A DNA stretch of 54,267 nucleotides from a virus (Duplodnaviria > Heunggongvirae > Uroviricota > Caudoviricetes): positions 117,500 through 171,766 of IMG/VR virus record IMGVR_UViG_3300042691_036629; one strand, 5' to 3'. How positions within the stretch are numbered: position 1 is the first letter of the stretch; each line of letters opens with the position of its first letter. The notes beneath the pieces were generated by a model. That model searched no databases and was not told the origin of the DNA. It was given only the letters and a program-made list of their open reading frames with translations. Made by a program: the position numbers and the translations under genes. Below, in pieces: positions 5,352 through 44,255 of the stretch.

Positions 5352-5630
5352 TTACTTTATAAATTCTTCAAAAATCTCGTCAATAGTTTTACCTTTTAAA
5401 TTTTTAAGGTTGTCACCTAAGTATAAACCAAATTGTTTCATATCTTCTTCGGTGTACATTTTTTCTGATTGCCATTTAGCACCAGCTTTGAAAGCATTTC
5501 TAACATCTTTATTATAATCTTCGGTGCTACCATAATCTCCTTCATATAGATCTGGTGGATATAATTTAAGAGCAACTCCTTCTAAATTTTCATTACTTTC
5601 GTTATATCTGTGTAAATATTTCATAATCAT
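5352..5630 (-). CDS. N-tag hypothetical protein (likely start 5624)
   Basis: MKYLHRYNES. Confidence 0.7.
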   Translation of the reverse strand: MIMKYLHRYNESNENLEGVALKLYPPDLYEGDYGSTEDYNKDVRNAFKAGAKWQSEKMYTEEDMKQFGLYLGDNLKNLKGKTIDEIFEEFIK

Positions 5631-5640
5631 TATTTATTTT

Positions 5641-5900
5641 TTAGTAATACTTATCGTAATTATCATCAATTGTTGAATTAAGAAACTCTAAAGCTTTCTC
5701 TTTTGAGACAGTTCCTCTAAGAGAACCAATATACTTCAGTTCACCACCTTGTGTCTTTATATCCACTCTAACGAAATAACCTCCAGGTTTAGTATCCATT
5801 GCAATACTGCTTCTGGATATTTTTTTCTTAATTCACTTAATGAAAGCAACTCTTTATGAGATTGCTCTTTTAGCATCTTAAAATTTTTAATATACTTCAT
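5641..5900 (-). pseudogene. N-tag protein with a 1-nt frameshift (pseudogene or sequence error)
   Basis: MKYIKNFKMLKE...ELRKKYPEA; protein-like sequence continues in the -1 frame (SIAMDTKPGGYFVRVDIK...DKYY*); TAATATATA 4 nt before ATG. Confidence 0.6.
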
Positions 5901-6064
5901 TAGTTATATATTAAAATTCTTTTAATCATTTATAAAAATCTTTAATTTTCTTCTAAGAGAATCTTTATACTTTTTAGGTGTCATTAAATATATAAATGAT
6001 ACAAAAATTATACAAAAAAACCAAAAAGATATGACGATTAAGTATAATAGGTTATTAAATATTT

Positions 6065-6283
6065 TCATCTTTTAAGTATATTCTCTATCTTTTTATCTCG
6101 TTCTTCTTGTTTGTGTAAATAATCAAAATAATCATATTTACTTTTAAACCCGTGTTTTCTTAAAACCTGAGTTTCATGTGAACGGAACTCGGTGTAACCA
6201 CGAGTTGATTTCTCACCTAAATTTTTACAAATGTATTGATAGTCGTCGTAATCATCATACATTTTATCTAGTCCACTTCCCAT
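6065..6283 (-). CDS. C-tag hypothetical protein
   Basis: Ends RDKKIENILKR. Confidence 0.75.
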   Translation of the reverse strand: MGSGLDKMYDDYDDYQYICKNLGEKSTRGYTEFRSHETQVLRKHGFKSKYDYFDYLHKQEERDKKIENILKR

Positions 6284-6293
6284 TATTTTATAT

Positions 6294-6743
6294 TTATTCT
6301 ATTCCTAATTCTGATAATTTTCTATCTCTGATCTTTTTCTGATCAACAACTATCTCTACTATTCTCTTATCTATCCACTTCTCTTTCATAAAGTTAATTA
6401 TACTAGGTCTGTTATTAGGATCTCTTGGATAAAGATCAAATGAAGAGAAATCAGTAGCAGTAACCTTAACACTATCTTTTGATACTTCTAAGATGGTTAC
6501 CTCATAAGTTACTTTATATTCTATTTTAACAGGATCTCTTTTCGGGTTGGTGTTTACAATCCCATAGTCCTTTATTATCCCAGTATCACCAGGCATTATA
6601 TCAAATATCTCTTTTTCTTTTACAACTACCTTTTTAGCAGAATCTAATTCTGTTCTGAGTGTAGTGTTTTTATCAAGGAGGTTTGATATGGTTATAGCAG
6701 AGATTACCAGTGCTATAGACAAACATATAATAACTATTAACAT
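6294..6743 (-). CDS. C-tag membrane-anchored protein, paralogue of 45371..45790
   Basis: N-terminal hydrophobic helix; YEVTILEVS..VKV...IINFMKEKWID; ends RDRKLSELGIE. Confidence 0.8.
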   Translation of the reverse strand: MLIVIICLSIALVISAITISNLLDKNTTLRTELDSAKKVVVKEKEIFDIMPGDTGIIKDYGIVNTNPKRDPVKIEYKVTYEVTILEVSKDSVKVTATDFSSFDLYPRDPNNRPSIINFMKEKWIDKRIVEIVVDQKKIRDRKLSELGIE

Positions 6744-6952
6744 ATTCCTAATTCATTTAGTTTTTCTTCTCTAATTTGTTGTATGGTTTTAAAAAAATCT
6801 TGACTTATAGTAATCCAACGATGTTTATCATCACATATTATATATTTACCATTCTTAAATTGTTCAGTAAATACTTTGGGGTCGGCAATTCTATACCACT
6901 TACCAACTGTTATAGAACTAACATCATCATTATTAATACAAAGTACTTTCAT
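6737..6952 (-). CDS. C-tag protein, KxIC family
   Basis: MKVLCIN...ITVGKWY; ends REEKLNELGIC. Confidence 0.8.
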   Translation of the reverse strand: MKVLCINNDDVSSITVGKWYRIADPKVFTEQFKNGKYIICDDKHRWITISQDFFKTIQQIREEKLNELGIC

Positions 6953-12101: not shown

Positions 12102-12335
12102 TTATATTCCTAATTCTTTAAGTTTAATTTCTCTTACTTCTGATATTGTTAAAAAATTATCAGCGTTATACTTTCTGAGCATTCCGTCTTCACATTTTAC
12201 TATATAAGATGGTTCGTCTGGTTTGAATGTGATTACATCATATATGATTGGTGCTGGTTCACATTCATACCACTCACCTTTTATAAGGACTTGGGTATCT
12301 ACCCAATTTACATTTATTTTGGATTGGCATTTCAT
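12102..12335 (-). CDS. C-tag protein, KxIC-family-like
   Basis: LIKGEWY...EDG; ends REIKLKELGI. Confidence 0.8.
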   Translation of the reverse strand: MKCQSKINVNWVDTQVLIKGEWYECEPAPIIYDVITFKPDEPSYIVKCEDGMLRKYNADNFLTISEVREIKLKELGI

Positions 12336-12574
12336 AGTCCAAGTTGTTTAAGTTTTTCTTCTCTCAGTTGGTTTTTTGAAAGTGTTATCTGATTTTGGTT
12401 CACAACATAATGTTTACTTACGTCAAATGCTTTATCCGGATCTGTTGGTATTAGTCTAATTTTAGTTAGACCTTTTGATGTCTTTTCATCTAATATCTCA
12501 GTTACTTTATATAAATCATAATTATCTCCAAATAATTTGATTGATACTTCGTCACCTACTTTGAAATCTCTCAT
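12332..12574 (-). CDS. C-tag protein, SH3-like (FKVGDEV)
   Basis: Ends REEKLKQLGL. Confidence 0.8.
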   Translation of the reverse strand: MRDFKVGDEVSIKLFGDNYDLYKVTEILDEKTSKGLTKIRLIPTDPDKAFDVSKHYVVNQNQITLSKNQLREEKLKQLGL

Positions 12575-12597
12575 AATCCAATTTCTTTATTTTTATA

Positions 12598-12629
12598 CAA
12601 AAATAATATTCTTTTTTAATATATACAAA
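12598..12629 (-). promoter_or_regulatory. Bacteroidota sigma-A-type promoter, overlapping a divergent TAATATATA motif
   Basis: TTTG-N20-TATTTTTG on - strand; TAATATATA at 12617-12625 on + strand. Confidence 0.65.
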
Positions 12630-12630
12630 T

Positions 12631-13062
12631 ATGAAATATTTAAAGATATTTGAAGATTTTAATGACCCTATAACGGAAAATAATAATAAGGCTAATGAGA
12701 TAGTAGATGATATTAAAACCATTTCATATCTTTTAGAAGAAGAAGGTTTTGAATTAAGATATACATTTGCTACTAAATCTGGTAATTCTTTTGAGGTTGA
12801 TGAATATAATAAAATCATTAATAGTCATGTTTTTAATACTAAATCAGTAAATATAGATATGGTGGTTGTAAAAATAATTGGAAGAACAATTACTGATCCT
12901 AAAACATTCCAAAGGACTTTAACTGATAGTGGTAAAGAAGCCATTGAGAGATATATTAATCTCTTAAAAGAACACTTAGATTATATAGACCCTAATAATA
13001 TAACTACTCAAAGATCTTTGATCGGGAATACAAATGTTATAATTAAATTAGATAAAGAGTAG
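12631..13062 (+). CDS. N-tag hypothetical protein
   Basis: MKYLKIFEDFND; TAATATATA 5 nt before ATG. Confidence 0.8.
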   Translation: MKYLKIFEDFNDPITENNNKANEIVDDIKTISYLLEEEGFELRYTFATKSGNSFEVDEYNKIINSHVFNTKSVNIDMVVVKIIGRTITDPKTFQRTLTDSGKEAIERYINLLKEHLDYIDPNNITTQRSLIGNTNVIIKLDKE

Positions 13063-13302
13063 ATATAATCTTATATCTCTTATAATAGATTGATCTCTTA
13101 AATCTGAAGCACCACTCTTTATATATTCCGATAAATATGATTCACATATACTAATAAACTCTTCAGTTTCTATTTCATCATTATCAGAATATAATCCATA
13201 GACTTCCTTCTTAATATCACTTACTACGCAATATAAATAGAATGATCCTGATGTCATAGAAGTCATTTCATTAATTATCTTGGTAGCAATTGATATTCTC
13301 AT
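13048..13302 (-). CDS. C-tag hypothetical protein
   Basis: Ends RDIRLYLLFI. Confidence 0.65.
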   Translation of the reverse strand: MRISIATKIINEMTSMTSGSFYLYCVVSDIKKEVYGLYSDNDEIETEEFISICESYLSEYIKSGASDLRDQSIIRDIRLYLLFI

Positions 13303-13574
13303 AGTCCTAATTCTTTTAGTCTATCTTCTCTTTTTGTTTGAGGGTTTATTTTTCGAGATTCTTCAGTTTCAACCCAACCAGTAAAAATTGTTTTATGCCA
13401 AAAATCACTATTGTGTTTTTTAAACTCACCATCTACTATTTTAGCAACAGATCTATATTTTATTTTAGGATATTCATTTAAATCTAATTCATATAGATGA
13501 TCATCATTTTGTTCACTTGCTACAATCATGCCAGTGTGTAATTCCGAAATATCTAATCTTCTTAATATCTTCAT
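13299..13574 (-). CDS. C-tag hypothetical protein
   Basis: Ends REDRLKELGL. Confidence 0.75.
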   Translation of the reverse strand: MKILRRLDISELHTGMIVASEQNDDHLYELDLNEYPKIKYRSVAKIVDGEFKKHNSDFWHKTIFTGWVETEESRKINPQTKREDRLKELGL

Positions 13575-13783
13575 TCTCCTAGTAACTCACTAAGTTTTTT
13601 ATCGCGAGCTTCAGCTTTTTCTCTTGCCAATCTTTCTTCCTCTGATTCTGATGGTTTTGATTCATACCATATTTTAGCGTCATAATATTTTGAAAGGTAT
13701 TTACCATCATATGTCATATACCCATCTTCATCGTCAAAAGAGTATTTACCATACTTATCGTATGTTGTATATTTATCTTTCAT
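13571..13783 (-). CDS. C-tag hypothetical protein
   Basis: Ends RDKKLSELLGE. Confidence 0.75.
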   Translation of the reverse strand: MKDKYTTYDKYGKYSFDDEDGYMTYDGKYLSKYYDAKIWYESKPSESEEERLAREKAEARDKKLSELLGE

Positions 13784-13787
13784 AAAG

Positions 13788-13886
13788 TTAACTTATTAAT
13801 AAGATTGCTATTATTCCCATTATACCTACTCCTAAAATCAAGCCAATTGTAAAATACTCAGCTCTTTCTGATTTCTTCTTAGCCAT
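13788..13886 (-). CDS. 32-aa single-TM peptide (not in ORF track)
   Basis: MAKKKSERAEYFTIGLILGVGIMGIIAILLIS. Confidence 0.55.
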   Translation of the reverse strand: MAKKKSERAEYFTIGLILGVGIMGIIAILLIS

Positions 13887-14064
13887 TATAGTTTTCTATT
13901 TCATCAACATATTCTGGGATTCTTATAATATCATCATACCATTGTAAATTACTTAAATCCTCATTTTTCATGGTTTCTAATAATATAAGATATTCCATTC
14001 CTGTTTCATAAAAGTTCTTTATAAACCAAGATATACGTTCTTCGTAAGTTAACTTTTCTCTCAT
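13879..14064 (-). CDS. Hypothetical protein
   Basis: TATATTTG box at 14070-14077 just upstream. Confidence 0.6.
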   Translation of the reverse strand: MREKLTYEERISWFIKNFYETGMEYLILLETMKNEDLSNLQWYDDIIRIPEYVDEIENYNG

Positions 14065-14087
14065 AATTACAAATATATGAAAAATAT

Positions 14088-14705
14088 TTATAAACCCAAT
14101 TCTTTTAGTTTTCTTTCTCTTATGTTAGATTTCATTATTGCTTCCATATTATGATAAACATCTTTAGTTGATTCCCAAACTTTGTTTGATACGGTACGTT
14201 TAACTATCTCATTATTAATTTCTATATAGAGTCTTTTCTTAGAAATAAAGTAGATTTGATTTATTTGATGTATCTCATATGGTACTCCAATACTTTTAAT
14301 GAAATCTTCATCTTGTATCTCAGTAACATAGATAGAATCTGTATCAATATAAAGAACAGTATCAATATATTTATTAAAGTAATATTCCATTATAGAATAC
14401 ATATATCCACTAATTCTAACTGAGTTTTTAAATTCTAACTTACCAAACCAACTATTTAATATTAGATTTTCATAATCTGAATGGTTATTCCTTTTAAGTA
14501 GTTCTTTTAAATCATCTATCTTTATATTTGATTTATCATCACCTGTTATTAACCCTTCGTCATAAAACTGTATAATAAGATGGGTATAAAGTTTTTTAAA
14601 CTCTATTTTTAAGATATTACTATGTATTGATAAGTTATTAAACTTAGAGTTTAACTCACAAAAACCACCACTGTTATTATGATTATCTAAAAATTGTTTA
14701 AGCAT
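14088..14705 (-). CDS. C-tag protein with family-B DNA polymerase-like motifs (fragment-sized)
   Basis: LILNSWFG (cf. motif B NSxYG) and VLYIDTDSIY (cf. motif C YGDTDS); ends RERKLKELGL; ATG at 14705. Confidence 0.65.
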   Translation of the reverse strand: MLKQFLDNHNNSGGFCELNSKFNNLSIHSNILKIEFKKLYTHLIIQFYDEGLITGDDKSNIKIDDLKELLKRNNHSDYENLILNSWFGKLEFKNSVRISGYMYSIMEYYFNKYIDTVLYIDTDSIYVTEIQDEDFIKSIGVPYEIHQINQIYFISKKRLYIEINNEIVKRTVSNKVWESTKDVYHNMEAIMKSNIRERKLKELGL

Positions 14706-14877
14706 TAATTCCAATTTGTTTTAATTTCCAATCTCTATAACATTTCTTACAAATCGTAACATTTATTTCTGTTTTAAGACCATTAATTTTAGCGGGTATA
14801 GTATAAATATCTTCACCAGTTATCACCTCATCACATTTAAAACAATTTGGTGATTTATATGACCAACTTCCACTCAT
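14698..14877 (-). CDS. C-tag Zn-finger-like small protein (not in ORF track)
   Basis: CFKC...CKKC; ends RDWKLKQIGINA. Confidence 0.75.
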   Translation of the reverse strand: MSGSWSYKSPNCFKCDEVITGEDIYTIPAKINGLKTEINVTICKKCYRDWKLKQIGINA

Positions 14878-15083
14878 TATATTCCCAATTCAGTTAATTT
14901 CTTATCTCTAATCACATCTGTGTGATAAACAGGTTTCCAAATGTGTGGATATTTAGAAAACTCACCACTTGTATATGGTTCAAATTCTCCAAGTTTTCTT
15001 CTATTACCTGGATAATCAGCAATCAAAATATATCCCTTAATCTCAGGGTGTCTTCTCGGTGTACTACACATACAAGGTCTCAT
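14877..15083 (-). CDS. C-tag hypothetical protein
   Basis: Ends RDKKLTELGI. Confidence 0.75.
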   Translation of the reverse strand: MRPCMCSTPRRHPEIKGYILIADYPGNRRKLGEFEPYTSGEFSKYPHIWKPVYHTDVIRDKKLTELGI

Positions 15084-15089
15084 TAACTC

Positions 15090-15494
15090 TTACTCTTCTT
15101 TTTTTATTTTCTTATCATTTGGAAGTTTTACTTTCACACCTACTGGTTTCCATCTAAAGTATGGAGGTAAACATTCACAACACATTTCTCTCTCACCACA
15201 CGTTCCACAATAATTACCATCACCATCATTTATCATGTATTTAAGAGCTTTCTCATTTATCTCTATCTCTGGAACTTTTTCACCACAGAAAGGACAAAAA
15301 TTAACTTCTATATAACTTTCATGTTTTCCCCAAGAAAAATCTCTAAAACCAAATGATAACCATTTAGGTTTTTTTGTGGATGGTAGATCAATTGAATACG
15401 AATCTTCAAAATTAAATTGAAGTTTTACAACTTTATGTTTTTTAGATTCATCACAACAATTTGTTGTTATAACATGTTCATATATTCTACTCAT
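15090..15494 (-). CDS. Cys-rich putative Zn-binding protein
   Basis: CC, FCPFCG, YCGTCG, CCEC. Confidence 0.7.
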   Translation of the reverse strand: MSRIYEHVITTNCCDESKKHKVVKLQFNFEDSYSIDLPSTKKPKWLSFGFRDFSWGKHESYIEVNFCPFCGEKVPEIEINEKALKYMINDGDGNYCGTCGEREMCCECLPPYFRWKPVGVKVKLPNDKKIKKEE

Positions 15495-15754
15495 TATAAA
15501 ATCTTATTTAATTGCATTTCTCTCCATTCTTCTAAAGTCACAAAGTTTTCTTTAGAAAAAATTAAACTATGAGAACCATATTCAGTTTTATCATCAAACC
15601 AAAATCTAATATAACTTGATGATAAGTATCTATCTAATTCATAGTAAGGTAAATCATAAACTTTACCAACTTCTAAGAAGTCGTCTTTTTTAAGATACTC
15701 ATTTCCCATACTATCTCTTCTCAAGATTTTATCATTTACACAAACTAATTTCAT
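15494..15754 (-). CDS. C-tag protein, KxIC family
   Basis: MKLVCVN...LEVGKVY; ends REMQLNKIL. Confidence 0.8.
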   Translation of the reverse strand: MKLVCVNDKILRRDSMGNEYLKKDDFLEVGKVYDLPYYELDRYLSSSYIRFWFDDKTEYGSHSLIFSKENFVTLEEWREMQLNKIL

Positions 15755-16011
15755 ACTCCTAATTCATCAAGTCTTTTTTCTCTCCATTCATCAACCGTTA
15801 TAAAGTTGTGTATGAAATATTTACCTTTAGCTTGACCTCTGCTAAGATCATCAATGAATTCAATTGATACCATATGAGACGACGACTTCCAGTAACTTCC
15901 TGCTAAAATTATATCTTCATCAGTAACTATGGCTTTAGCACCAGGTAAACAATTATATCCATCCACCTTCTCCTTCCAAACAAGAATGGTTCCTTTATTC
16001 AGTCTAATCAT
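15751..16011 (-). CDS. C-tag hypothetical protein
   Basis: Ends REKRLDELGV. Confidence 0.75.
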   Translation of the reverse strand: MIRLNKGTILVWKEKVDGYNCLPGAKAIVTDEDIILAGSYWKSSSHMVSIEFIDDLSRGQAKGKYFIHNFITVDEWREKRLDELGV

Positions 16012-16280
16012 CTAACTTCAATTTCTTCATATGAGTAAGCATTCACATCACTTAAAGTATGATACTTACTCCACCATTCTAAAAGTAGATTTCTTCTAAC
16101 ATCAGTATCATCAATATCTTCTAACTCACTATCAATTTCACCAAACCTCTTTTTTAGTCTTTTATTGAATTCATTAGCTTTATCACAATACTTTTTAGCG
16201 AATTCTTCTGATCCGGTTACAAATAGGGATTCTGTATAAAAATCATCCCACGAACCACCTGTTCTTTTAACTACAAACAT
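16008..16280 (-). CDS. Hypothetical protein
   Basis: ORF coupled to neighbours. Confidence 0.65.
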   Translation of the reverse strand: MFVVKRTGGSWDDFYTESLFVTGSEEFAKKYCDKANEFNKRLKKRFGEIDSELEDIDDTDVRRNLLLEWWSKYHTLSDVNAYSYEEIEVR

Positions 16281-16286
16281 AATATT

Positions 16287-16589
16287 TTATTTATATGACC
16301 ATTCATCATCTTCATCAAAGTAATAAGACTTTGATTTATCACCATCTGATATAGTACAATAGTATTCAAACTCTTGACATATTTCTTCACATAAGAAAGT
16401 ATCGATATCCTCTATGTTAGTTAATTCATTAGTTTCTATTTTGACATTATGTAGTTCTTCATCTATATCATAATCAAATGTTATAATTGAATCTGGATAA
16501 TCAGATAGAAATCGTTCCATTATTTTTTCACCAATTGAATCTATAATGTTAGTGTCGTCTGTGTAAACGAAAAATTCGGTTGTTATCAT
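16287..16589 (-). CDS. Acidic hypothetical protein
   Basis: ORF coupled to neighbours. Confidence 0.65.
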   Translation of the reverse strand: MITTEFFVYTDDTNIIDSIGEKIMERFLSDYPDSIITFDYDIDEELHNVKIETNELTNIEDIDTFLCEEICQEFEYYCTISDGDKSKSYYFDEDDEWSYK

Positions 16590-16918
16590 ATTCTCCCTGT
16601 TTTTGATGTTCTTCTTAATTCATTTGCTAAAGTCTCCATTGTTTCACTAACAATAGGATGATTTTTATATGGTTTTCCAACCACAAGTAAAGTTCTTAGA
16701 ATACCACGATCAGTTTCATTTAGATAACCTTTTAAATATTCGTTATATTTAACCATTGTTTCATCACTTGGTGATCCTGATCTTTTACCAGTGAATGGTT
16801 CTAAATGTTTTTCAGCACCTAATATCTCACTACAATCTTCATATATTCCGTGATATATTTTAAGATTATCATTTGTTTCTTTTGAGAACATCGGATTGTA
16901 TTGATATTCTTTTCTCAT
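16586..16918 (-). CDS. Hypothetical protein
   Basis: ORF coupled to neighbours. Confidence 0.65.
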   Translation of the reverse strand: MRKEYQYNPMFSKETNDNLKIYHGIYEDCSEILGAEKHLEPFTGKRSGSPSDETMVKYNEYLKGYLNETDRGILRTLLVVGKPYKNHPIVSETMETLANELRRTSKTGRI

Positions 16919-17160
16919 ATGTTTAACATTTTTAGTTTAAAGTCTCTAAGTAAAGGTAGTATTAAGTTTTTATCATTTTCACCTAAATCATCTATATACT
17001 TATGACATATTTCCATAAAGTCTTCTAATATTAGATCTTCATCCAATACATATTTGTAATTTAGTTCTTTTTTTATTTTAGATATAAAAAAATAGTTATC
17101 TAACTTACGTAAAACTGTAAGTTTTTCTAACTCCTTAATAAAATCTCTATACTCATTCAT
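16915..17160 (-). CDS. C-tag hypothetical protein (start re-called at ATG 17160)
   Basis: Ends RDFKLKMLNI; the ORF-track extension to 17226 reads through a tRNA-like RNA. Confidence 0.7.
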   Translation of the reverse strand: MNEYRDFIKELEKLTVLRKLDNYFFISKIKKELNYKYVLDEDLILEDFMEICHKYIDDLGENDKNLILPLLRDFKLKMLNI

Positions 17161-17162
17161 AG

Positions 17163-17242
17163 TGGTCAAGATAGGATTCGAACCTATGACGATGCGACCA
17201 TTAAGGGTGAGATACCACTTTCTCATTACGCATTACTTGACC
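17163..17242 (-). ncRNA. Non-canonical tRNA-like RNA A
   Basis: Acceptor GGTCAAG/CTTGACC+A; T-arm ATAGG-TTCGAAT-CCTAT; interior is an ATGCG/CGCAT helix enclosing TGAGA-AAGTGGTA-TCTCA and a short 6-nt-loop hairpin; no canonical anticodon arm. Confidence 0.7.
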
Positions 17243-17296
17243 AACCTACTTCCTTTCTTCGTCGATGCTCGTTGTTTAGTAGTAACCAATCAGAAG

Positions 17297-17377
17297 TAGT
17301 CAGGACAGGATTCGAACCTGTATCATAACGCTATAAGGAACTTAATCCACGATGACTTCCCATTAGCCCACCTGACT
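17297..17377 (-). ncRNA. Non-canonical tRNA-like RNA B
   Basis: Acceptor AGTCAGG/CCTGACT+A; D-arm GGCT-AATGGGA-AGTC; T-arm ACAGG-TTCGAAT-CCTGT; no 5-bp/7-nt anticodon arm. Confidence 0.7.
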
Positions 17378-17418: not shown

Positions 17419-17468
17419 ATAAATATTTTTAATATATACTTTATAATATAAAACAAATTTCATTTAGT

Positions 17469-18023
17469 ATGAAAAAGATTAAGAGTTGGAAGTTATTCAA
17501 CGAGTCAGTTGAAGAAAGTTTAGAGGATGTAAAATGGTTTTTAGTTGATTATGATAATATAGTTCCTTATGATTATTATCCTAACTCAACTAATTTACTT
17601 GTGTATCGTATATCTGGTTATGGATTTTCAAAAGCTGATTTTGAAAGAATTGAAAGACTAGCTAATGAAGAAGATTGGAATGTTATAAATAAGAAAGAGT
17701 TTCTTATTTTCTATAAAGGGAGTAGAGAAGAAGCTGTTTTAAATTGGTTAGATGAGAATTATAATAATCTTAAAATTAAAGTTATATCAAAAGGTGAAGA
17801 CCACTACTATAAGGAAAATGAGTATGTAATTTCATTTACAGTTAATAAAACTTTTAATCCGAATTATGAATTACTTTATAACAATATATTTATGGAAAGT
17901 GATATATCTTATGTACCACATGTTTTTATAGATGATGCTAACTTATTAGACGATATTTTAAAAAAGTGGTTAGAAAGGACTTATAATATTACTAAAATAA
18001 CTAACATTTATTATGAGGATTAA
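17469..18023 (+). CDS. N-tag hypothetical protein
   Basis: MKKIKSWKLFNESVE; TAATATATA at 17430-17438. Confidence 0.8.
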   Translation: MKKIKSWKLFNESVEESLEDVKWFLVDYDNIVPYDYYPNSTNLLVYRISGYGFSKADFERIERLANEEDWNVINKKEFLIFYKGSREEAVLNWLDENYNNLKIKVISKGEDHYYKENEYVISFTVNKTFNPNYELLYNNIFMESDISYVPHVFIDDANLLDDILKKWLERTYNITKITNIYYED

Positions 18024-18468
18024 AAATTGGAAATTATTCAACGAGTCAGTTGAATCGAGTATGGAAGATAAGTTTATGAAACATGAAATACTAAACAATA
18101 TAGAAGTTATTAAAACATATGGTCGTCAAAAAAATAATAAATCAATAGATTTAAAATTTATTTATAATGATGATATTATTTGGGAGTTTAAGATTGAGGG
18201 AAACGAATATTTTGATGAGGTTATGGAGACAGGTGAAGGTATTTATAGGATAATATCGTATAAACTCATTGATAAGTATAGGGGTAAAAACTTGGGGTTT
18301 GATTTATTTAAAAAAAGTATTAATATTGTTTTCAATGAGGATGATATAAAAAAAATCTACTCATATAATAATGAGCGAAATAGAAACTCAAATAGATTAT
18401 GGAATAAACTTTCTGAAAATGGCTATATTGTAAATAAAGATGAAAATTTCTACTCTGTTGAACGTTGA
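18013..18468 (+). CDS. N-tag protein, GNAT-like acetyltransferase fold
   Basis: MRIKNWKLFNESVE; LIDKYRGKNLG (cf. GNAT motif A RxxGxG) and downstream SNRLWNKL. Confidence 0.7.
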   Translation: MRIKNWKLFNESVESSMEDKFMKHEILNNIEVIKTYGRQKNNKSIDLKFIYNDDIIWEFKIEGNEYFDEVMETGEGIYRIISYKLIDKYRGKNLGFDLFKKSINIVFNEDDIKKIYSYNNERNRNSNRLWNKLSENGYIVNKDENFYSVER

Positions 18469-18487
18469 TAAAAAAATATATTGTAAC

Positions 18488-19156
18488 ATGAGGATTAAAA
18501 ATTGGAAATTATTCAACGAGTCACTTGATATGATAGAAGGTGAGTTGGAAGATATTGTTATTCACTTCTGTGAAGATGGTAATACTACTTTTGAATTGGT
18601 TGAAGTTTTTTGTGATGGTGGTATTTATATTTGGAAGGTTGATGATACTAGACAAATAAGAAGTAAAAATGATTACTGGGACTTTTATGAATCTCATAGG
18701 AGAATGGCTTTAGAGGTTGGTTATCATTTTCATTTATCTGGAGTATTGAGTGATTTAATAATATTCTCTAAGTTTGGTGATTTAAAAAACACTCTAATAG
18801 AATTATTAGATTGGATTAGTAGTTTAGAATTGGTTAGTAAAGAAAAACCATTTAATAATAGATATGTTGTTGGTAAGAAAATTTTTAATTATTATTTGTA
18901 TAAGGACAAGAAGTTAGTAGAGTGGAATAAATATGTTAATTCGGATGGTTTAGAGTCATTAGATCCACGTAGAGCAAGTTTTTCAAATGGTGAGATTGGT
19001 AGTCATTATAAATCTACTGTTTATCTAGAAAATATAGTTTGTAACATTTTTTTATGTGTTGATTCAAAAATTAAATTTGATATACTTAAATCATGGTTAA
19101 TTGAAATAGATCCTTTATTTAAAAAGTTTGAACTTAATGTTGGTGAATTAAAATAA
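18488..19156 (+). CDS. N-tag hypothetical protein (start re-called at ATG 18488)
   Basis: MRIKNWKLFNESLD; first 36 nt identical to those of 18013. Confidence 0.8.
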   Translation: MRIKNWKLFNESLDMIEGELEDIVIHFCEDGNTTFELVEVFCDGGIYIWKVDDTRQIRSKNDYWDFYESHRRMALEVGYHFHLSGVLSDLIIFSKFGDLKNTLIELLDWISSLELVSKEKPFNNRYVVGKKIFNYYLYKDKKLVEWNKYVNSDGLESLDPRRASFSNGEIGSHYKSTVYLENIVCNIFLCVDSKIKFDILKSWLIEIDPLFKKFELNVGELK

Positions 19157-25525: not shown

Positions 25526-25554
25526 ACTTTATATATTAAATATTATTATTTATT

Positions 25555-34306: not shown

Positions 34307-35500
34307 TTAATCTTCATCATCCCAATCTTCATCATCATCACCATCAGCAGACCATATGATTTCACGAGAACCTTCAAATCTTCTATTACTAATTTTACCA
34401 GTATTTCTATCCCAGTTTCTCATGTTATCAACCGATGGATAAGCACGGTATCCTTCTGGTTTAACTTTAGTGTGAGCAACATATGTTCTACCACCATCAT
34501 AGATGTAATGCCATCCTTTAGATCTAGCATATTCTCTAAAAACAGCATTATCTGAATCAGCACTTGTATATATACAATCCATTAAAACACCACCATCATC
34601 TAATGTCCAAAGAAGTGCTCTACCAATTATTTTATCAGGATTATCTAATGATTTTAAAATAAGTAGTTTAACTGTATCTGGATTATCAATATAGATTTCT
34701 AACCAATCTCTTCTACCAACTGCTTGGCAAGAACCACCTAAGTTTCCTCTATTTGGGAACTCATAGTTTTCTCTTTTATACCAGTAAAGAAGATCTTCAC
34801 CATCAACGATTTCAAATCTTGAGAAAACATCATTCATTACCGCGATAACACCTCTAAACTCATTTACAAATGTTTCTAATTGAGCATCGTTAAATCTTAA
34901 ACCTTTAGCATTTAAAAGAGCTCTGATTGCTCTACCAATTCTAATAGTTTGTCTTGATGAAGTGAAGACTTTCTTTTTTAATTCTTCATGAGCGTTAGCC
35001 AATCTTTCTTGACTATAAACACCTTCACCATTTTCAAACTTAACATAACACCAAGTTTTATTTGTTCTTGGAGAAGTCCATTTTGATATAACTTCACCAT
35101 ATTCAGTAGCTTGTGGATGATAAACTGGAGTATCAACAACCGGTTCATAACCCATTCTTCTAAAGATATTAAGGTTTCCAGCAGTATTTGTTAACCAATT
35201 ACCTCTACGACCAGTCCATCTAACCATCTCTTTGTCTAATCTAATAATAGCTTGAGCTGTTCTATCGTTAGTAAATGATAGTTCATTATCGTTATCAATT
35301 AAGATATCAAAGAAGTTAGATACAACATCTAAGTCTTCATTCTCAATTTCTAATAAGGCTTTAGCAACCTCGTTATCAGGTAGTCTTTGTAAAGCCTTTT
35401 TAAACTTAGGTGAGTAAGCAACAATTGACTCTAAAAGAAGTAAACTTTCAACTAAAAGTTTTTCTGATAAGAAATATTTGTAGTTTAATATATTCTTCAT
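34307..35500 (-). CDS. N-tag protein, paralogue of 38127..39374
   Basis: MKNILNYKYFLSE; shared IRIGR..R.LL, WYKRENY, G.L..SC, GRA.LW, MD.IYT; TAATATATA 5 nt before ATG. Confidence 0.85.
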   Translation of the reverse strand: MKNILNYKYFLSEKLLVESLLLLESIVAYSPKFKKALQRLPDNEVAKALLEIENEDLDVVSNFFDILIDNDNELSFTNDRTAQAIIRLDKEMVRWTGRRGNWLTNTAGNLNIFRRMGYEPVVDTPVYHPQATEYGEVISKWTSPRTNKTWCYVKFENGEGVYSQERLANAHEELKKKVFTSSRQTIRIGRAIRALLNAKGLRFNDAQLETFVNEFRGVIAVMNDVFSRFEIVDGEDLLYWYKRENYEFPNRGNLGGSCQAVGRRDWLEIYIDNPDTVKLLILKSLDNPDKIIGRALLWTLDDGGVLMDCIYTSADSDNAVFREYARSKGWHYIYDGGRTYVAHTKVKPEGYRAYPSVDNMRNWDRNTGKISNRRFEGSREIIWSADGDDDEDWDDED

Positions 35501-35563
35501 AATTTTATATATTATTTTTAATTTCTCAAAAAAACTATTATATTTGTATCTATATAAAAAAAT

Positions 35564-35653: not shown

Positions 35654-35670
35654 AAAATAATATATAATTT

Positions 35671-35850
35671 ATGGAAAATATTTATACATGGGAAGAATTT
35701 AACGAGTCTTATAACAAACCAAGAGCTGGTGGTAAAAAAAGATGGTCTGTAAAATACAAAAAATCTATTGACTGTAATAACCCTAAAGGTTTTAGTCAGA
35801 AACAATATTGTAAGAGAAAAAGAAAAGGTGGTAAATACAAGAATAATTAA
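35671..35850 (+). CDS. 59-aa basic N-tag protein (not in ORF track)
   Basis: MENIYTWEEFNES...WSVKYKKSIDCNNPKGFSQKQYC; TAATATATA 4 nt before ATG. Confidence 0.8.
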   Translation: MENIYTWEEFNESYNKPRAGGKKRWSVKYKKSIDCNNPKGFSQKQYCKRKRKGGKYKNN

Positions 35851-36828: not shown

Positions 36829-37242
36829 TTAAATCTTACTACGTTTTATCTCACCATTATCAAAAAATATAGTAACAATCTCTTCAATACCAGTTATTGT
36901 TAAAATAGATCTTTCTAAGTCAAAATCAATTTTCTTTCTCTCATACAAATGAATAACATGAGATGGTTCTCCATTCTTGAATATGATTACACCAAACCAA
37001 CTATTATACCACTCACCCTTTGTTTCTAAGTTATAAACTTTATACTTATCTTCACCAACAGTAAATATTTTAAGTGGCTTATTTGTTAAGTCATAACAAA
37101 CTTTTGAAAATTGTGTTATGTTTGAGTAATCTTTTCTCTTTGAAAGATCAATAGTTACTCCTTTATTCATAAGTTGTTTTAAACTGAAAACTGTTTCATT
37201 TGGGTTTTCATTTTTAAATGAGTTAAAGTCTTTAATTAACAT
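36829..37242 (-). CDS. N-tag hypothetical protein
   Basis: MLIKDFNSFKNE; TAATATATA at 37265-37273. Confidence 0.75.
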   Translation of the reverse strand: MLIKDFNSFKNENPNETVFSLKQLMNKGVTIDLSKRKDYSNITQFSKVCYDLTNKPLKIFTVGEDKYKVYNLETKGEWYNSWFGVIIFKNGEPSHVIHLYERKKIDFDLERSILTITGIEEIVTIFFDNGEIKRSKI

Positions 37243-37270
37243 TTTAATTTAATATATTTTTTATTATATA

Positions 37271-37870
37271 TTAAATTCCCAACTTATTAAGTATGTTTTC
37301 ACGTTTTCTTTGAATAGATTTCCACTCTGGGCAATTATTTAACTCAGTAAGTGATCTAACTCCAAAGTAGTTAGCTATATTACTCTCAGTTCTTCTATTA
37401 CTATTTTCACCAATCAATTTATTACCAAAGTAGTAGTAAAATCTACCATCTTCTACTTCACATTTAGTAAAGAATGAAACTGTTTTTGAAAAGACTCTAT
37501 CAAGTTGATAATTCGTTTCATCGTCGTTAGCGAAAATACCAACAACAGCCATTATAAAAGCAATTGTATAAATAATCCAAATAAAAATATTAGCATCATT
37601 ATACTTATACTCTACAATGTTATTACCCTTTGTTAATTTGAGTGGTTTAGATTCACTTCTCATTTCTAAATCACCATCATCAAAATAAAAATAACAATGT
37701 GATCCTTCAATATTCAATTCTTTAACTACGTGAGTTACTTCTTTAACATCTGGTAATGAATTTAGTACCGGGTATAAAAGTATTAACAAACCAATAGCAA
37801 CTGTTTTAACTTTGTTTGTTTTAATAAAGTTTAATAAATAAACAAGTGGAAATAGAATAATATTTTTCAT
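37271..37870 (-). CDS. C-tag membrane protein, paralogue of 32056..32709
   Basis: TM helices; ends RENILNKLGI. Confidence 0.75.
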   Translation of the reverse strand: MKNIILFPLVYLLNFIKTNKVKTVAIGLLILLYPVLNSLPDVKEVTHVVKELNIEGSHCYFYFDDGDLEMRSESKPLKLTKGNNIVEYKYNDANIFIWIIYTIAFIMAVVGIFANDDETNYQLDRVFSKTVSFFTKCEVEDGRFYYYFGNKLIGENSNRRTESNIANYFGVRSLTELNNCPEWKSIQRKRENILNKLGI

Positions 37871-38126: not shown

Positions 38127-39374
38127 TTAGTCGTTATCGTACCAACCTCCGTGTGTTGTTCTTGCTACTCTGGTTTCATCACCACAGATTGACTTAGTAT
38201 TTGTACAAAACTTACCATCAATATCAATATAACAAAGAGTATCCATATATGGTAATTTACCAGTTTTCACTTTGTTAAGAGGAACCTTAATTGTTGCTCT
38301 TTTTCTGATAGACCCATTACTGATGTATTGACCTGGCTCCATATCTTGATGTTCTTTATACCACCATCCATTTTCTTTCGCAAACTCTCTAAATAAGTTT
38401 ACATCAGAGTCATTTTTAGTGTAGATACGATCCATATAAGTTGCTTTCTCACCATCAATCTCACCGTGCCATAAGATAGCACGACCTTTGATTTTTTTAG
38501 AAGTGTATTTTTCATCTTTGATTGTACCTTCATCATCATAAAGAATAACCATTTGAACATTATCATTCTTAACATAAATGTTAAAGTAAGTTTTAGCAAC
38601 TTCAGCCATACAAGATGAGTTTAAAGTACCACCACCCTCAACATAGTTTTCTCTTTTATACCAGTGTTGAATTTCTTCATCTTGAACAATATCAAACTTC
38701 TTGAAAGCGTCTCCTAAAACGTCATAAGTTGATTTGTATAAGTTTACAAACTCTTCAATATTAGAATCAGTATATTCTTCTTTAAGTAAAGTTCTAACAA
38801 GACGACCAATTCTAATTGGGTTTCTTGATTTTGTGATCATACCAACGTGTACATCAATTGTGTTGTACCAAGGTGATATAGAACCAGAACAATCATCATT
38901 GAAATAATTTTCACCGTAGTATTGGTAATAATTTTGGTCGTATGGTCGAGTGGCTTGTTTGTTGATAACACCAACACGATCTCCATCTTTTTCTTTGAAT
39001 AAACAATAAGTTTTACCAGATTGTTTTGAAACAACTTCATTTAAAATCTCACCGATTGTCCCTTGTGGAATTTGGAAAGCTAAAGGTGACTCCATATCAA
39101 ATTCTAAAGCTCCAAATATTCTTCTATTTGAGTTTTTGAAAAGTAAGTTACCAGTTCCGGTAACAATATGATACACCTTTGTATCATTAAGTAATTCAGC
39201 CGCTTTTCTTTCAGTGGTGAAAATTAATCCATCATTAGTAGCACCAACATCAACATAGTTGTTTACTAATTCCATTTCAGTATTGGCGTTTGATAAAATC
39301 TCCATAGCGATTTTATTTCTACCCATTGCTCTTAAAACATTTGCAAATTTAATACTTATTCTAAGTTTACTCAT
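38127..39374 (-). CDS. Conserved phage protein, untagged paralogue of 34307..35500
   Basis: IRIGRLVR, WYKRENY, LNSSCM, GRAILW, MDRIYT; TATATTTG at 39395-39402. Confidence 0.85.
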   Translation of the reverse strand: MSKLRISIKFANVLRAMGRNKIAMEILSNANTEMELVNNYVDVGATNDGLIFTTERKAAELLNDTKVYHIVTGTGNLLFKNSNRRIFGALEFDMESPLAFQIPQGTIGEILNEVVSKQSGKTYCLFKEKDGDRVGVINKQATRPYDQNYYQYYGENYFNDDCSGSISPWYNTIDVHVGMITKSRNPIRIGRLVRTLLKEEYTDSNIEEFVNLYKSTYDVLGDAFKKFDIVQDEEIQHWYKRENYVEGGGTLNSSCMAEVAKTYFNIYVKNDNVQMVILYDDEGTIKDEKYTSKKIKGRAILWHGEIDGEKATYMDRIYTKNDSDVNLFREFAKENGWWYKEHQDMEPGQYISNGSIRKRATIKVPLNKVKTGKLPYMDTLCYIDIDGKFCTNTKSICGDETRVARTTHGGWYDND

Positions 39375-40672: not shown

Positions 40673-40711
40673 AAAGCAAATATAAAATAATTTTTTAATA
40701 TATACAATATT

Positions 40712-41605
40712 ATGAAGAATATAAAAAAGTTTAATGAGTTTGTAGATTTACAAAATGAGGGAGTTAAAGACTGGGTAGCTGGTGCTGGACTTTTAGCATC
40801 TACACTTTTGCCTAATAAAGCAACTGCCGGTGTTGAACCTGGTGATACTTTACATAAAGTTACTAAAAGTAAAAGTGAGATGGAACAATTGGTTAAATAT
40901 AACCATTGGACTTTAGACTCAACAAAGGTTGATACTTTATATCAAATAATAAAAAAGAAAGCTCCTGAGACTAAAATCTATTCAGATACTATCACTTTTG
41001 GAGTTGATGGTGAATTATTTTTAACTGGTAAGTTTGAGTTGAATAGTACTGTTATTAGTGGTATAATGGATGATATAAATAGTATTGGTGAGAAGGGTGG
41101 TACTATAACAGACTTTCAAATTGAATCATCAACTGATAAAGAGCCAATTAAAATGGGTAATGATGTACTCGCTCAAAAAAGAGCTGATGTCATTAAAAAT
41201 GAATTAATTAAGAATGGAGTAGATCCGAGTCTCATTTCTATTCAGACATTACCAGAACAAGGTCCTGATTTATATAAATCTGGTATGAATTCTGATGAAA
41301 GAGTTGAGGCTAGAAAAAAAACATCCGAGTTTAGATATGTTAAAGTAAGAATAGTTTATATTTTAAATGGTGATGTTGATTTACCTGCTGAATATGATAC
41401 TATTATGAATAGTAAAAAGACTTATTATTTAAGTAAACCTGTTACGGTTGGTACTATAAAGCCAAGAAGGCTTAAAAATCATTTTAAAAAGACTACTGTT
41501 AGTTTACCGATTAAAAATACAAAAAGAAGTAATGGTAGAACTGATTGTCCAGACTGGGGTGGTAAAAAAGGATGGTGGAATAGTAAAAAACTTGGATACG
41601 AATAG
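40712..41605 (+). CDS. N-tag protein with signal-peptide-like segment and OmpA-C-like domain
   Basis: MKNIKKFNEF...NE-GVKDWVAGAGLLASTLLPNKATA; N..LAQKRADVIKNELI..GV...RYVKVRI. Confidence 0.7.
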   Translation: MKNIKKFNEFVDLQNEGVKDWVAGAGLLASTLLPNKATAGVEPGDTLHKVTKSKSEMEQLVKYNHWTLDSTKVDTLYQIIKKKAPETKIYSDTITFGVDGELFLTGKFELNSTVISGIMDDINSIGEKGGTITDFQIESSTDKEPIKMGNDVLAQKRADVIKNELIKNGVDPSLISIQTLPEQGPDLYKSGMNSDERVEARKKTSEFRYVKVRIVYILNGDVDLPAEYDTIMNSKKTYYLSKPVTVGTIKPRRLKNHFKKTTVSLPIKNTKRSNGRTDCPDWGGKKGWWNSKKLGYE

Positions 41606-41613
41606 TATCCAAT

Positions 41614-42069: not shown

Positions 42070-42073
42070 ATAT

Positions 42074-42104
42074 CAAATATAATAAAAAATTTTTAGTTTA
42101 CAAA
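42074..42104 (-). promoter_or_regulatory. Bacteroidota sigma-A-type promoter
   Basis: TTTG-N19-TATATTTG. Confidence 0.75.
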
Positions 42105-42443
42105 TTATTTCCAAAATATTTGAATTCCTAATATCAGTGCTGATAAGAAAAGACAAACTCCTGTTTTTAATGTTATACCTTCCCCAAAAAGTATTATTGA
42201 TAAAACTGAGAAGACTATTATTCCAATTGAAAAGCCTATTAATCTACTAGGCCATATTTGACCATCACCCCAAGCAACTAAATTTTTAACAGACATCATA
42301 AATACCCAAGAGATAGGTGCTCCCATCATTAGAACCCAAAATTTATGATCTTGTAAAAATTGATATTTTAAACTTCCTTGTATTTGAAAAAATATTAAAA
42401 TTTGTGCTATCGTTCCCCAAAAAATCCCCCAAAATAAATTCAT
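42105..42443 (-). CDS. Four-TM small membrane protein (DMT/SMR-like topology)
   Basis: Four hydrophobic helices in 112 aa; TAATATATA 4 nt before ATG. Confidence 0.7.
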   Translation of the reverse strand: MNLFWGIFWGTIAQILIFFQIQGSLKYQFLQDHKFWVLMMGAPISWVFMMSVKNLVAWGDGQIWPSRLIGFSIGIIVFSVLSIILFGEGITLKTGVCLFLSALILGIQIFWK

Positions 42444-42453
42444 TAGTTATATA

Positions 42454-43212
42454 TTAATTTTTAGTTTTTATTCTTTCAGCTGCTCTTTTATAAGCGTTTA
42501 ATTCATTTTGTAAAGATTCTCTATCTTTATGATTTCTTGGTAGTTTATCTAATTGTTCTTGTCTTAACTTAATCTTTTCATTTAGTTTATCTAAACGAGG
42601 ATTACCCGTAGTTGTTTCTTGTTTAGGTTGAGATCTTTTTTGTTCTTGATTATGTTCTCTTTTATAATCATTATACTTTTTGTCCCAATCATATTGGTTA
42701 TATGTTCTATAATTGTTGTTGGATGGTCTTCTTTGTGAATTTCTAGCGATATCCAAGAATATATTTAATACTCTATGGTATTGTTGAGAATTTAATTTAT
42801 AAATTCCAAGTGTACTACCAATTCGATCACTCAAAATGATAAAATTATTTAATGAACCTGAGGATAATTTAAGTCTATAACCATTTTCGAATTTATAATA
42901 AATTAGATCGCTAGTAATAATATTGATTTTATCACTATATGGATTAGCATTAAAGTCTTTAACTAATAAGTTGATTATCTTATTAGACTTTCTTTCGTCT
43001 TCATCTGATTTTTCTCTTTGACGGTTTTTATAATCTCTATAAGATTTATCAAAATCCTCATACGGATCACTGTTATATTCATAAGAATTGAAACTGTTTC
43101 TATACTTACTCTCCTTTTTATTACTCTCTTTTTCCTCAGGTTCACTTTCCAAATAATTGGTTATTAAAATAAACACTGATAATATTATAATAACAAAAAT
43201 TATAAATTCCAT
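42454..43212 (-). CDS. Membrane-anchored hypothetical protein
   Basis: N-terminal TM helix; charged coiled C-terminus. Confidence 0.75.
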   Translation of the reverse strand: MEFIIFVIIILSVFILITNYLESEPEEKESNKKESKYRNSFNSYEYNSDPYEDFDKSYRDYKNRQREKSDEDERKSNKIINLLVKDFNANPYSDKINIITSDLIYYKFENGYRLKLSSGSLNNFIILSDRIGSTLGIYKLNSQQYHRVLNIFLDIARNSQRRPSNNNYRTYNQYDWDKKYNDYKREHNQEQKRSQPKQETTTGNPRLDKLNEKIKLRQEQLDKLPRNHKDRESLQNELNAYKRAAERIKTKN

Positions 43213-43266
43213 AATAATATTTTTTTACAAAAATAAAAAAAGATTTTAATTTTTAATATATAAACT

Positions 43267-43920
43267 ATGAGAAAAATTAAACTATTTAGTGAATTTTTAA
43301 AAGAGAGTTTAGAAATTCCGGTTGAGTATATTGACTTTGTTCAAATGTTGAAAGATCATGGTATTGATACAGATTTATATGGTACTGGTACTTATAAAAC
43401 AATTGGACATCTTTGGCAAGAAATAAAAGAAGGTGAAACTGATTTAACTGATGAAAATGGTCAGTTGATGAGAAAAGTACAATTTGTCGGTGCTAGAATT
43501 CTTTATAAGAAAGATGGTGGTTGGTTAAGACTTTATGAAGAGAAACAACTATTCAAAGATGGTAGAGAAAGAAGAAGAACTCACATGCCTTATTCGGCAG
43601 CTGAAAAGTTTAAAGCTGGTGAAGATCCAAAAGAAGTAATCATCAGAGGTATGAAAGAAGAATTGGGTATTGATATAACTAAAGATCAATTTGCTTTTTA
43701 TAATAAGAAAGAAATACAGAATGATGATGATTATCCTGGGATTATTTCGACTCATACTGGTTATGAATTCTTAGTTATATTAAATGATAGTCAATATATA
43801 GAAGAAGGTTACATAGAAAGACAAAAAGACAAAGATGTTTATTTTACTTGGAGACCAGTTGAGAAATCATTAAAAGAATCAAAATTATTTTTAGTATTAG
43901 AAAAATATAATAAATTATGA
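43267..43920 (+). CDS. N-tag NUDIX-like hydrolase
   Basis: MRKIKLFSEFLKES; degenerate Nudix box GEDPKEVIIRGMKEELGI; TAATATATA 4 nt before ATG. Confidence 0.75.
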   Translation: MRKIKLFSEFLKESLEIPVEYIDFVQMLKDHGIDTDLYGTGTYKTIGHLWQEIKEGETDLTDENGQLMRKVQFVGARILYKKDGGWLRLYEEKQLFKDGRERRRTHMPYSAAEKFKAGEDPKEVIIRGMKEELGIDITKDQFAFYNKKEIQNDDDYPGIISTHTGYEFLVILNDSQYIEEGYIERQKDKDVYFTWRPVEKSLKESKLFLVLEKYNKL

Positions 43921-44255
43921 AAAAATTTTCCGAAATAAATGAAGCTAAATTCTTTTCAGCGGATCCAAGTATTATTAAAAAATACGCTGCTAGAATAATA
44001 CCATTTTACATAACTGGTGAGTTAGTTTGTAAAGATACAAAGTTAATTGATGAGTGGTTAGAGATGAATAAAAATAATCAAAAACATCAAAATGAGAATA
44101 TTGTTTGTGATTTGGAGATAATGGCAGTTAAAGCTGTTTTGGATTATAGTCCTTTAACTCAAAGTGGATATAGTGTTTTATTTAATGAAATAGATAATAA
44201 ATGTCCTAAATTAGAAAGATTTATAAGAAATTTAGTAATCAACTTTAAAAAATAG
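43917..44255 (+). CDS. N-tag hypothetical protein
   Basis: MKKFSEINEA; coupled to upstream gene. Confidence 0.7.
   Translation: MKKFSEINEAKFFSADPSIIKKYAARIIPFYITGELVCKDTKLIDEWLEMNKNNQKHQNENIVCDLEIMAVKAVLDYSPLTQSGYSVLFNEIDNKCPKLERFIRNLVINFKK

Follow-up and report, generated by a model that had tools for sequence, protein, structure and literature searches.

What is the role of a short N-terminal motif that recurs at the start of 13 genes in one stretch of viral DNA? The stretch of 54,267 nucleotides (hereafter the window) is the terminal 54 kb of a linear IMG/VR virus record assigned to the Caudoviricetes (IMGVR_UViG_3300042691_036629; 171,766 bp, 27.7% GC, CheckV completeness of about 62%). 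The original prediction held that this motif (hereafter the tag) resembles the capsid-targeting sequence (CTS) of the phage T4 internal proteins, and that its carriers are cargo packaged in the virion and ejected into the host. Our analysis favors a similar view, namely that the tag is probably an expanded and diverged T4-like CTS that directs both targeting and cleavage. The tagged proteins would be made late, alongside the head proteins. Through an amphipathic helix at their N-terminus, in which positions 4 and 7, and often 10, are hydrophobic or aromatic, they would dock on the protease-scaffold core of the prohead as it assembles. A gp21-type (S77) protease would then cut after the Glu of a hydrophobic-x-Glu end (F-N-E/S, x-F-E/S, I-x-E/x, or a linker L-L-E/S), and the mature protein, freed within the head, would exit with the DNA at the next infection.

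The record encodes a protein sorted by the type IX secretion system (T9SS), which indicates a Bacteroidota host, and a gp6-like baseplate wedge protein. Relatives were sought with the wedge protein by tblastn against a phage collection; a single-protein search for related loci gave one short locus. The wedge protein shares 63% identity with its counterparts in two "uncultured phage" records, LR745206.1 and LR756502.1 (634-642 kb), so the record represents part of a megaphage genome from that clade. Near-identical DNA was found repeatedly in lake and freshwater metagenomes of several studies, and 0 of the public sequencing runs listed as holding this DNA are recorded as RNA. We found no publications that describe the tag in megaphages.

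All 13 predicted N-termini were found in the window at Met starts. Two starts were slightly corrected: in the longest open reading frame (ORF), MKYLH begins only at the third codon, and the start of the second MRIKNW copy moves from 18440 to 18488. A 14th tagged gene (MKKLKTFEGF; plus strand, genome 117199-117747) begins 300 nt ahead of the window, and its C-terminal part occupies window positions 3-248. Simple regular expressions were too permissive and were replaced by a profile made from 31 N-termini with a threshold of >=6 bits. This profile matched 37 of the 344 ORFs of the whole record (tag total 37-38). Every match began at residue 1 or, where the ORF had been extended too far, at a Met inside it, and the best score inside any protein of the record was 5.7 bits. 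The main consensus spans roughly 12 residues, M-[KR]-x-[IL]-K-x-[FYW]-(x-x-[FY])-x-E-[S/N/A]. The record has one example (MRKYNQFILE, genome 66036) of a second form, M-(I)-K-K-[YW]-x-Q-F-I-x-E, which LR745206.1 has 21 times as M-I-K-K-Y-x-Q-F-I-x-E; the window start at 43917, MKKFSEINE/A, resembles it. The profile matched 103 of the 990 ORFs of LR745206.1 (635 kb), which with the 21 proteins of the second form gives about 124/990. The tagged proteins are otherwise unrelated, with a mean column identity of 8% beyond the tag, and BLAST found for most of them no relative within the tagged set or elsewhere in the record and LR745206.1.

Given that MK-rich starts are frequent in AT-rich genomes, the motif could be a chance or compositional product of Lys/Asn/Phe-rich N-termini at 28% GC. 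We scored four cultured relatives spanning a GC content of 29-37%, two of them as AT-rich as the record. The matches were 0/318 in pT24 (28.7% GC), 1/331 in PTm1, 1/205 in MaF61 and 0/279 in MA9V-2, against 37/344 in the record; the single PTm1 match was weak and was not accepted as a tag. With 0-1 matches in relatives of similar GC content, the tag is not a by-product of AT-rich coding, and these controls exclude a compositional artefact, to which we give practically no credence. No internal position attained the scores of the N-termini either. In addition, an exact DNA pattern for MK[YH]LKxFNE was found in 99 stretches of IMG/VR, on contigs of up to 676 kb, against a chance expectation roughly estimated at well under one. 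Among 80 of these loci, 205 of the 1116 ORFs were tagged.

The tagged genes also share an upstream element. Of the 37 tagged genes, 26 have the sequence ATATATA, usually inside TTAATATATA, within the 45 nt ahead of them. A second, C-terminal tag (C-tag, R-D-x-K-L-x-E-L-G-I) is found on 80 proteins of the record, and the element precedes 70% of the tagged genes, 0% (0/80) of the C-tag genes and 17% of the others (odds ratio 16.7, P = 1.6e-13). The corresponding values in LR745206.1 were 50%, 4% and 23% (P = 1.2e-9). Within the window, nine tagged units have ATATATA, and the four tagged genes without the element lie directly behind a tagged gene. Since ATATATA also lies ahead of the genes for portal, protease, major capsid, tail sheath and head decoration in LR745206.1, we read it as the probable late-promoter-like signal of this clade. 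These structural late genes have the element and no tag, so the tag is not required for late expression. The claim that no protein with the N-terminal tag has the C-tag was borne out (0/37 vs. 80/307, Fisher P = 4.5e-5). The two labels are mutually exclusive as an observation, and they coincide with a class bearing the late-type element and a class lacking it. As ATATATA is absent from all 80 C-tag genes, the tags divide transcription classes as well as protein sets. Long minus-strand runs hold 77/80 of the C-tag genes (e.g. window 269-5346 and 12102-17226).

The position of the element raises the question of whether the shared start acts in the nucleic acid, as a translation enhancer of late, possibly leaderless messages or as the joint of a recombination cassette, with the peptide as a by-product. 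Among the 37 tagged genes, 16 have the element ending just 4-5 nt ahead of their ATG, and transcripts may start at or near the start codon. However, the first 13 codons of the tagged genes use synonymous K, F, Y, E, N and S codons in genome-wide proportions in both genomes, tag conservation tracks residue classes (F/Y/W, I/L), and a three-residue indel is tolerated. Taken together, these features place the constraint on the peptide. Element-bearing late genes also start differently, for example with MA.. or MS.., including 44 untagged genes of LR745206.1 with a gap of 4 nt. We consider an explanation at the RNA or DNA level very improbable. Twelve other genes of the record share the 4-5-nt gap with the 16 tagged ones. 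Transcription from T4 late promoters starts a few bases downstream; late mRNAs here would be leaderless or nearly so if transcription began a few bases downstream of the element.

The tag is strictly N-terminal, conserved at the protein level and modular. Its modularity is best seen in the family of the 397-aa protein encoded at 34307-35500 (minus strand), which has 197 database relatives. This protein starts with MKNILNYKYFLSE, followed by the linker KLLVESLLLLE/S, and its gene has ATATATA at 35506-35512. We aligned it with 55 database homologues and with its tagless 415-aa paralogue in the window (38127-39374, minus strand). Among the sequences aligned, 52/56 have either tag form and then a nearly invariant L-L-E-S. 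The tagless members, P0206 and the window paralogue, start exactly at the family's E/S junction, the Met of the latter aligning with the ...LLE/S of the tagged copy. In a second family, a 26-residue tagged extension ending in L-I-L-E/G aligns with the start of a tagless 522-aa protein (genome 8577), and in two more families homology to a tagless relative begins one residue past ...Y-N-E-S or straight after ...L-F-E. Comparison of orthologues between the record and LR745206.1 showed that the tag is retained even at 29% overall identity, and orthologues and paralogues alternate between the T4-like form and the MKYLKxFNES form. The AlphaFold2 model of the 397-aa protein has a mean predicted local distance difference test (pLDDT) score of 86.5, with a confident globular body from about residue 25 and residues 1-22 as a detached helix with a pLDDT near 50. 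Judged by these alignments, the tag is a portable, detachable module closing in hydrophobic-x-Glu.

We compared the tag with the T4 CTS residue by residue. The resemblance proposed in the original prediction was confirmed against the T4 record (NC_000866), where IPII and IPIII start with MKTYQEFIAE/A and IPI with MKTFKEF. In the IPIII CTS, residues 4 and 7 govern targeting and residues 8 and 10 processing, and gp21 cleaves after L/I-x-E (PMC9026906). The second-form tag MRKYNQFILE shares M1, Y4, F7, I8 and E10 with T4 MKTYQEFIAE, and another tag, MKKFKEYIKE, also fits the T4 CTS at positions 4, 7, 8 and 10. In the main consensus, positions 4 and 7 are hydrophobic or aromatic ([IL]4, [FYW]7). 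All tag endings are hydrophobic-x-E, with F or Y often at P3.

A T4-type CTS would call for a gp21-like protease and a scaffolding core, which the original prediction proposed to look for in the rest of the genome. Searches with PF03420 and PF07068 found no capsid or protease genes in the record; as the record is an incomplete fragment, this does not prove their absence. The machinery was found in relatives. LR745206.1 encodes, in T4 gene order, a portal (phrog_213), a 707-aa head-maturation protease (phrog_207) and a 560-aa gp23-like major capsid protein (phrog_138). The match of this protease to PF03420 is weak (E = 1e-4). Its C-terminal half resembles a scaffold and holds about 11 copies of Y-S-E-Y-[LI]-A-E-N-L-D-K-N-I, arranged in tandem, so that protease and scaffold are fused. 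IMG/VR loci L088 and L071 have the same module of portal, protease-scaffold and capsid genes. The protease-scaffold has >5000 database relatives, several of them with a precomputed PF03420 match, and the homologous proteins of cultured PTm1, pT24 and MA9V-2 exceed the PF03420 (S77) cut-off. By direct alignment with gp23 from the T4 record, the capsid protein is alignable from the first residues, with K-W-x-P-[VL]-L-E common to both; a phmmer search of the capsid protein against PDB sequences gave no match. The protease-scaffold repeats are 13-14 residues long, each with a T4-type [LI]-A-E site (LR745206.1, L011:8546-10669; L088:9405-11591), and separate ORFs of 63-80 aa consist of a few copies of this repeat (L107:178-420, L058:9756-9947 and L094:1409-1600).

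The protease-scaffold further carries the endings of the tag. The tripeptide N-E-S, which closes many tags, is scarce within proteins (0.30 per 1000 aa). The protease-scaffold is the sole N-E-S-enriched protein among the 990 of LR745206.1, with four sites at domain borders (P = 6.7e-5). The four site positions are conserved across 52 homologues, three as N-E-S and the fourth as F-E-S in most. The N-E-S and F-E-S of the scaffold mirror the two tag endings. Hydrophobic-N-E-S sites are also present in the protease-scaffolds of LR756504, LR756501 and PTm1, the last with three. The more distant LR756500 has V-N-E-A instead of N-E-S, and almost no tags were found in the 41 kb of it that were examined. 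A predicted complex between the protease-scaffold (alignment A3) and a 141-aa tagged protein from the same contig, L088, scored 0.00 and bears neither way.

A further link concerns the capsid protein. Four IMG/VR loci encode an 83-aa protein in which MKKFKEYIKE/D leads straight into a copy of the predicted mature N-terminus of the capsid protein (residues 45-96), with a basic, Lys/Arg-rich tail behind it (L129:6113-6364, L077:1692-1943, L123:9983-10234 and L076:10844-11095). It aligns with the capsid protein with a score of 122 (BLAST E 1e-8) and is 45% identical to residues 33-96. Its I-K-E aligns with the capsid I-N-E/N, the end of the predicted gp23-like N-terminal propeptide, and the capsid residues before this boundary, M-S-E-Y-A-E-F-H-S-I-N-E, are themselves tag-like. 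The 83-aa protein could be a mimic of the capsid N-arm that acts in the capsid interior or binds DNA. A tagged 282/355-aa methyltransferase-like protein (L129 and L123) was tried as another capsid N-arm likeness and did not score above shuffled controls.

Lys with aromatics at i, i+3 and i+6 is typical of amphipathic helices in general, and the tag is predicted to be helical. It might therefore sort late proteins to another place, such as the inner membrane face or a late assembly or replication zone, with the likeness to T4 being convergent; a set of >100 different capsid cargo proteins would also be unprecedented. Sorting elsewhere leaves unexplained, however, why the hydrophobic-x-Glu end falls exactly at the start of tagless homologues, why x-N-E-S is enriched in the protease-scaffold only, why the tag Glu is aligned with the capsid propeptide boundary and why one variant equals T4 at all four mapped residues. 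Behind the tag, D/E are enriched 1.5-1.7-fold, and such an acidic stretch is unfavorable for membrane binding. We regard this alternative as unlikely. Transmembrane (TM)-like segments were found in 0/38 tagged vs. 37/268 untagged proteins of the record (P = 0.007) and in 2/124 vs. 91/784 in LR745206.1 (P = 1.7e-4). The tag does not fit a Sec/Tat, lipoprotein or T9SS signal, for which one would expect some 10 or more hydrophobic residues in a core behind a basic N-region, or a sorting domain at the C-terminus: it is amphipathic without a hydrophobic run, is followed by the acidic stretch and is accompanied by TM-like segments in 0/38 proteins.

If the tag is a CTS, the nature of the tagged proteins should be considered. 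Pfam searches on the 37 tagged proteins of the record recognized only two NUDIX and one OmpA-like domain, leaving 34/37 without a recognized domain. The cargo labels given in the original prediction were only partly upheld. The OmpA-like assignment stood (PF00691, E = 1e-6), and the NUDIX assignment in the window was weak (E = 0.008, below the cut-off), another tagged gene of the record being a clear NUDIX (2e-17). For the GNAT-like label, the body of the 34307-35500 model gave only weak GNAT-superfamily fold matches (E 4e-3 to 2e-2). Among 119 tagged proteins of LR745206.1, Pfam recognized single members of the T4-type RNA ligase, NFACT-R, M15 peptidase, 2H/Acb1-like phosphoesterase, RNase T-like exonuclease, methyltransferase, DHH and Toprim groups. 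None of the Pfam-matched tagged proteins of either genome is a canonical structural protein. Enzymes made late would make most sense if they acted at the start of the next infection.

T4 gp22, gp67 and gp68 are degraded or expelled during head maturation, and the tagged proteins might likewise be assembly helpers, core fillers or decoys that are lost at maturation and not delivered. This possibility relies on the same machinery evidence as a targeting role. The 83-aa combination of tag and capsid-N-arm mimic resembles an assembly part more than an effector, and the large share of tagged proteins without a recognizable enzymatic domain also fits. On the other hand, large folded enzymes are numerous among the tagged proteins (NUDIX, RNA ligase, Acb1-like, methyltransferases and the GNAT-like body with pLDDT >85). 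Tagged families also turn over fast between close relatives, as T4 internal proteins do, and arms-race cargo fits this rapid turnover better than a conserved assembly role. A role confined to assembly is, in our judgment, improbable.

The original prediction is thus supported in part. For a diverged T4-like CTS, the match to T4 residues, the late-type element, the hydrophobic-x-Glu end, the solubility of the tagged proteins and the S77 protease-scaffold of close relatives with its x-N-E-S sites spoke in favor, and the lack of protease and scaffold in the fragment and of the expanded tag set in cultured relatives spoke against. Several points weigh against this explanation. Scaffold binding, cleavage, virion presence and ejection are steps that we infer from gene sequences. 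The link to the protease is by proxy, as the head module is seen in relatives that are joined to this fragment by a 63% identical wedge protein. In addition, PTm1, pT24 and MA9V-2 have an S77 protease-scaffold but not the expanded tag set, and the tag therefore does not follow from the machinery by itself. The commonest short form has Phe or Tyr at P3, where the consensus for T4 gp21 has Leu or Ile, and the bodies of the tagged proteins show no depletion of cleavage-like motifs, although the counts are small. Finally, packaging would have to take in the products of about 12% of the genes, or >100 proteins in the 635-kb relative, far above the roughly 50 head proteins known for phages of the phiKZ type.

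The remaining tagged genes of the window are distributed over both strands. A 90-aa protein starting MKYLHRYNES is encoded at 5352-5624 (minus strand) without its own element, directly downstream of a small ORF on the same strand (5757-5900, 47 aa, MKYIKNFKMLKE) that has ATATATA at 5905-5911, 4 nt before the ATG. This small ORF overlaps a 52-aa ORF in another frame (5641-5799), and a frameshift or a sequencing error may have divided what is a single gene. The gene at 12631-13062 (143 aa, MKYLKIFEDFND; ATATATA at 12619-12625, 5 nt before the ATG) is the sole plus-strand gene within a run of minus-strand C-tag genes and has a paralogue at genome 93995-94426. Three tagged genes form a plus-strand operon at 17469-19156 with a single ATATATA at 17432-17438: the first (17469-18023) starts with MKKIKSWKLFNES, and the second (18013-18468) and third (18488-19156), both without an element of their own, start with MRIKNWKLFNES. 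Just upstream of this operon, ARAGORN predicted a tRNA-like gene with a four-base anticodon (taag) at 17296-17377 (minus strand); six ordinary tRNA genes lie at 47640-50561.

Farther along, a 300-aa protein of function-unknown family phrog_12810 starting MRYIKYYEEF is encoded at 24623-25525 (minus strand), with ATATATA at 25530-25536, 4 nt before the ATG. Two tagged genes follow at 35671-35850 (plus strand, a small gene of 59 aa with a basic tail, MENIYTWEEFNES; ATATATA at 35660-35666, 4 nt before the ATG) and 36829-37242 (minus strand, 137 aa, MLIKDFNSFKNE; ATATATA at 37265-37271, 22 nt upstream). The OmpA-like peptidoglycan-binding domain belongs to a 297-aa protein starting MKNIKKFNEF (40712-41605, plus strand; ATATATA at 40698-40704). 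The weak NUDIX match belongs to a 217-aa protein starting MRKIKLFSEFLKES (43267-43920, plus strand; ATATATA at 43256-43262, 4 nt before the ATG). The second gene of the same unit (43917-44255, plus strand) encodes the 112-aa protein with the T4-like variant MKKFSEINE/A.

Tag-like starts were also noticed in other phages. In cultured PTm1, two adjacent hypothetical genes start with MKLFETINES and MKELIKHIQES, whose I-x-E-S ends are tag-like (L162:2355-5006, record 139854-142505). In the 42 kb of Prevotella phage Lak-B5 that were examined, two proteins share the start M-N-K-L-I-K-K-L-[VM]-E-[SG]-L-F-D-D (L161:8446-9684 and L161:34915-35979), perhaps a counterpart of the N-terminal tag that is particular to that clade.

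The comparison with known systems suggests that the tag is related to the T4 CTS, which is carried by IPI, IPII, IPIII and Alt. Both are N-terminal peptides of 10-19 residues on soluble proteins that evolve fast and are otherwise unrelated. In both, positions 4 and 7 are hydrophobic or aromatic and the end is hydrophobic-x-Glu, and both belong to lineages with a gp20/gp21/gp23-type head module. They differ in scale, with about four such proteins in T4 and about one gene in nine in the megaphage lineage, and in the common megaphage form, which is longer or re-spaced, MK[YH][IL]Kx[FY](xx[FY])xE[S], with Phe or Tyr at P3. Unlike the T4 CTS, the megaphage tag often has a second, L-L-E/S-type site and is paired with a protease fused to the scaffold.

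The phiKZ group offers a second parallel. These are also giant phages with a diverged gp21-type protease that recognizes a three-residue motif and cuts after Glu. In phiKZ, 201phi2-1 and SPN3US, gp21-like proteases (gp175, gp245) cut propeptides from many head proteins in this way, and from inner-body and ejection proteins too; dozens of the proteins that phiKZ-type giant phages package enter the host by ejection (PMC9026906). Cleavage in phiKZ follows the motif S/A-x-E, and phiKZ-type propeptide regions hold several cleavage sites (PMC9026906). This lineage is unrelated in sequence to the Bacteroidota phages studied here. Encapsulin cargo-loading peptides are likewise short and portable and direct unrelated enzymes into an HK97-fold shell; they are usually C-terminal and uncleaved, and the shell is non-viral, without scaffold or protease. 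The comparison with encapsulins is an analogy only. We know of no shared N-terminal decapeptide tag in the phiKZ group.

A broader proposal, which we advance tentatively and with slightly less than even confidence, is that Bacteroidota megaphages have scaled the CTS up to a proteome-wide address, with about 1/9 of the genes expressed late and their products loaded into the head by way of the protease-scaffold core, trimmed after Glu and injected. The C-terminal tag would then mark a non-late class of small proteins. If this is true, the largest known phages would bring at least 100 pre-made proteins with their DNA, and their huge gene content would have to be reinterpreted. Many "hypothetical" late genes would be factors for host takeover and counter-defence in the first minute. 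Infection would open with an enzyme arsenal several times bigger than that of any studied phage, spanning RNA-repair, nucleotide-hydrolysing, acetyl- and methyl-transferase and cell-wall-binding enzymes. A simple sequence rule would then predict virion cargo in thousands of uncultured genomes, and the tag would provide a short, portable means of putting foreign proteins into large capsids.

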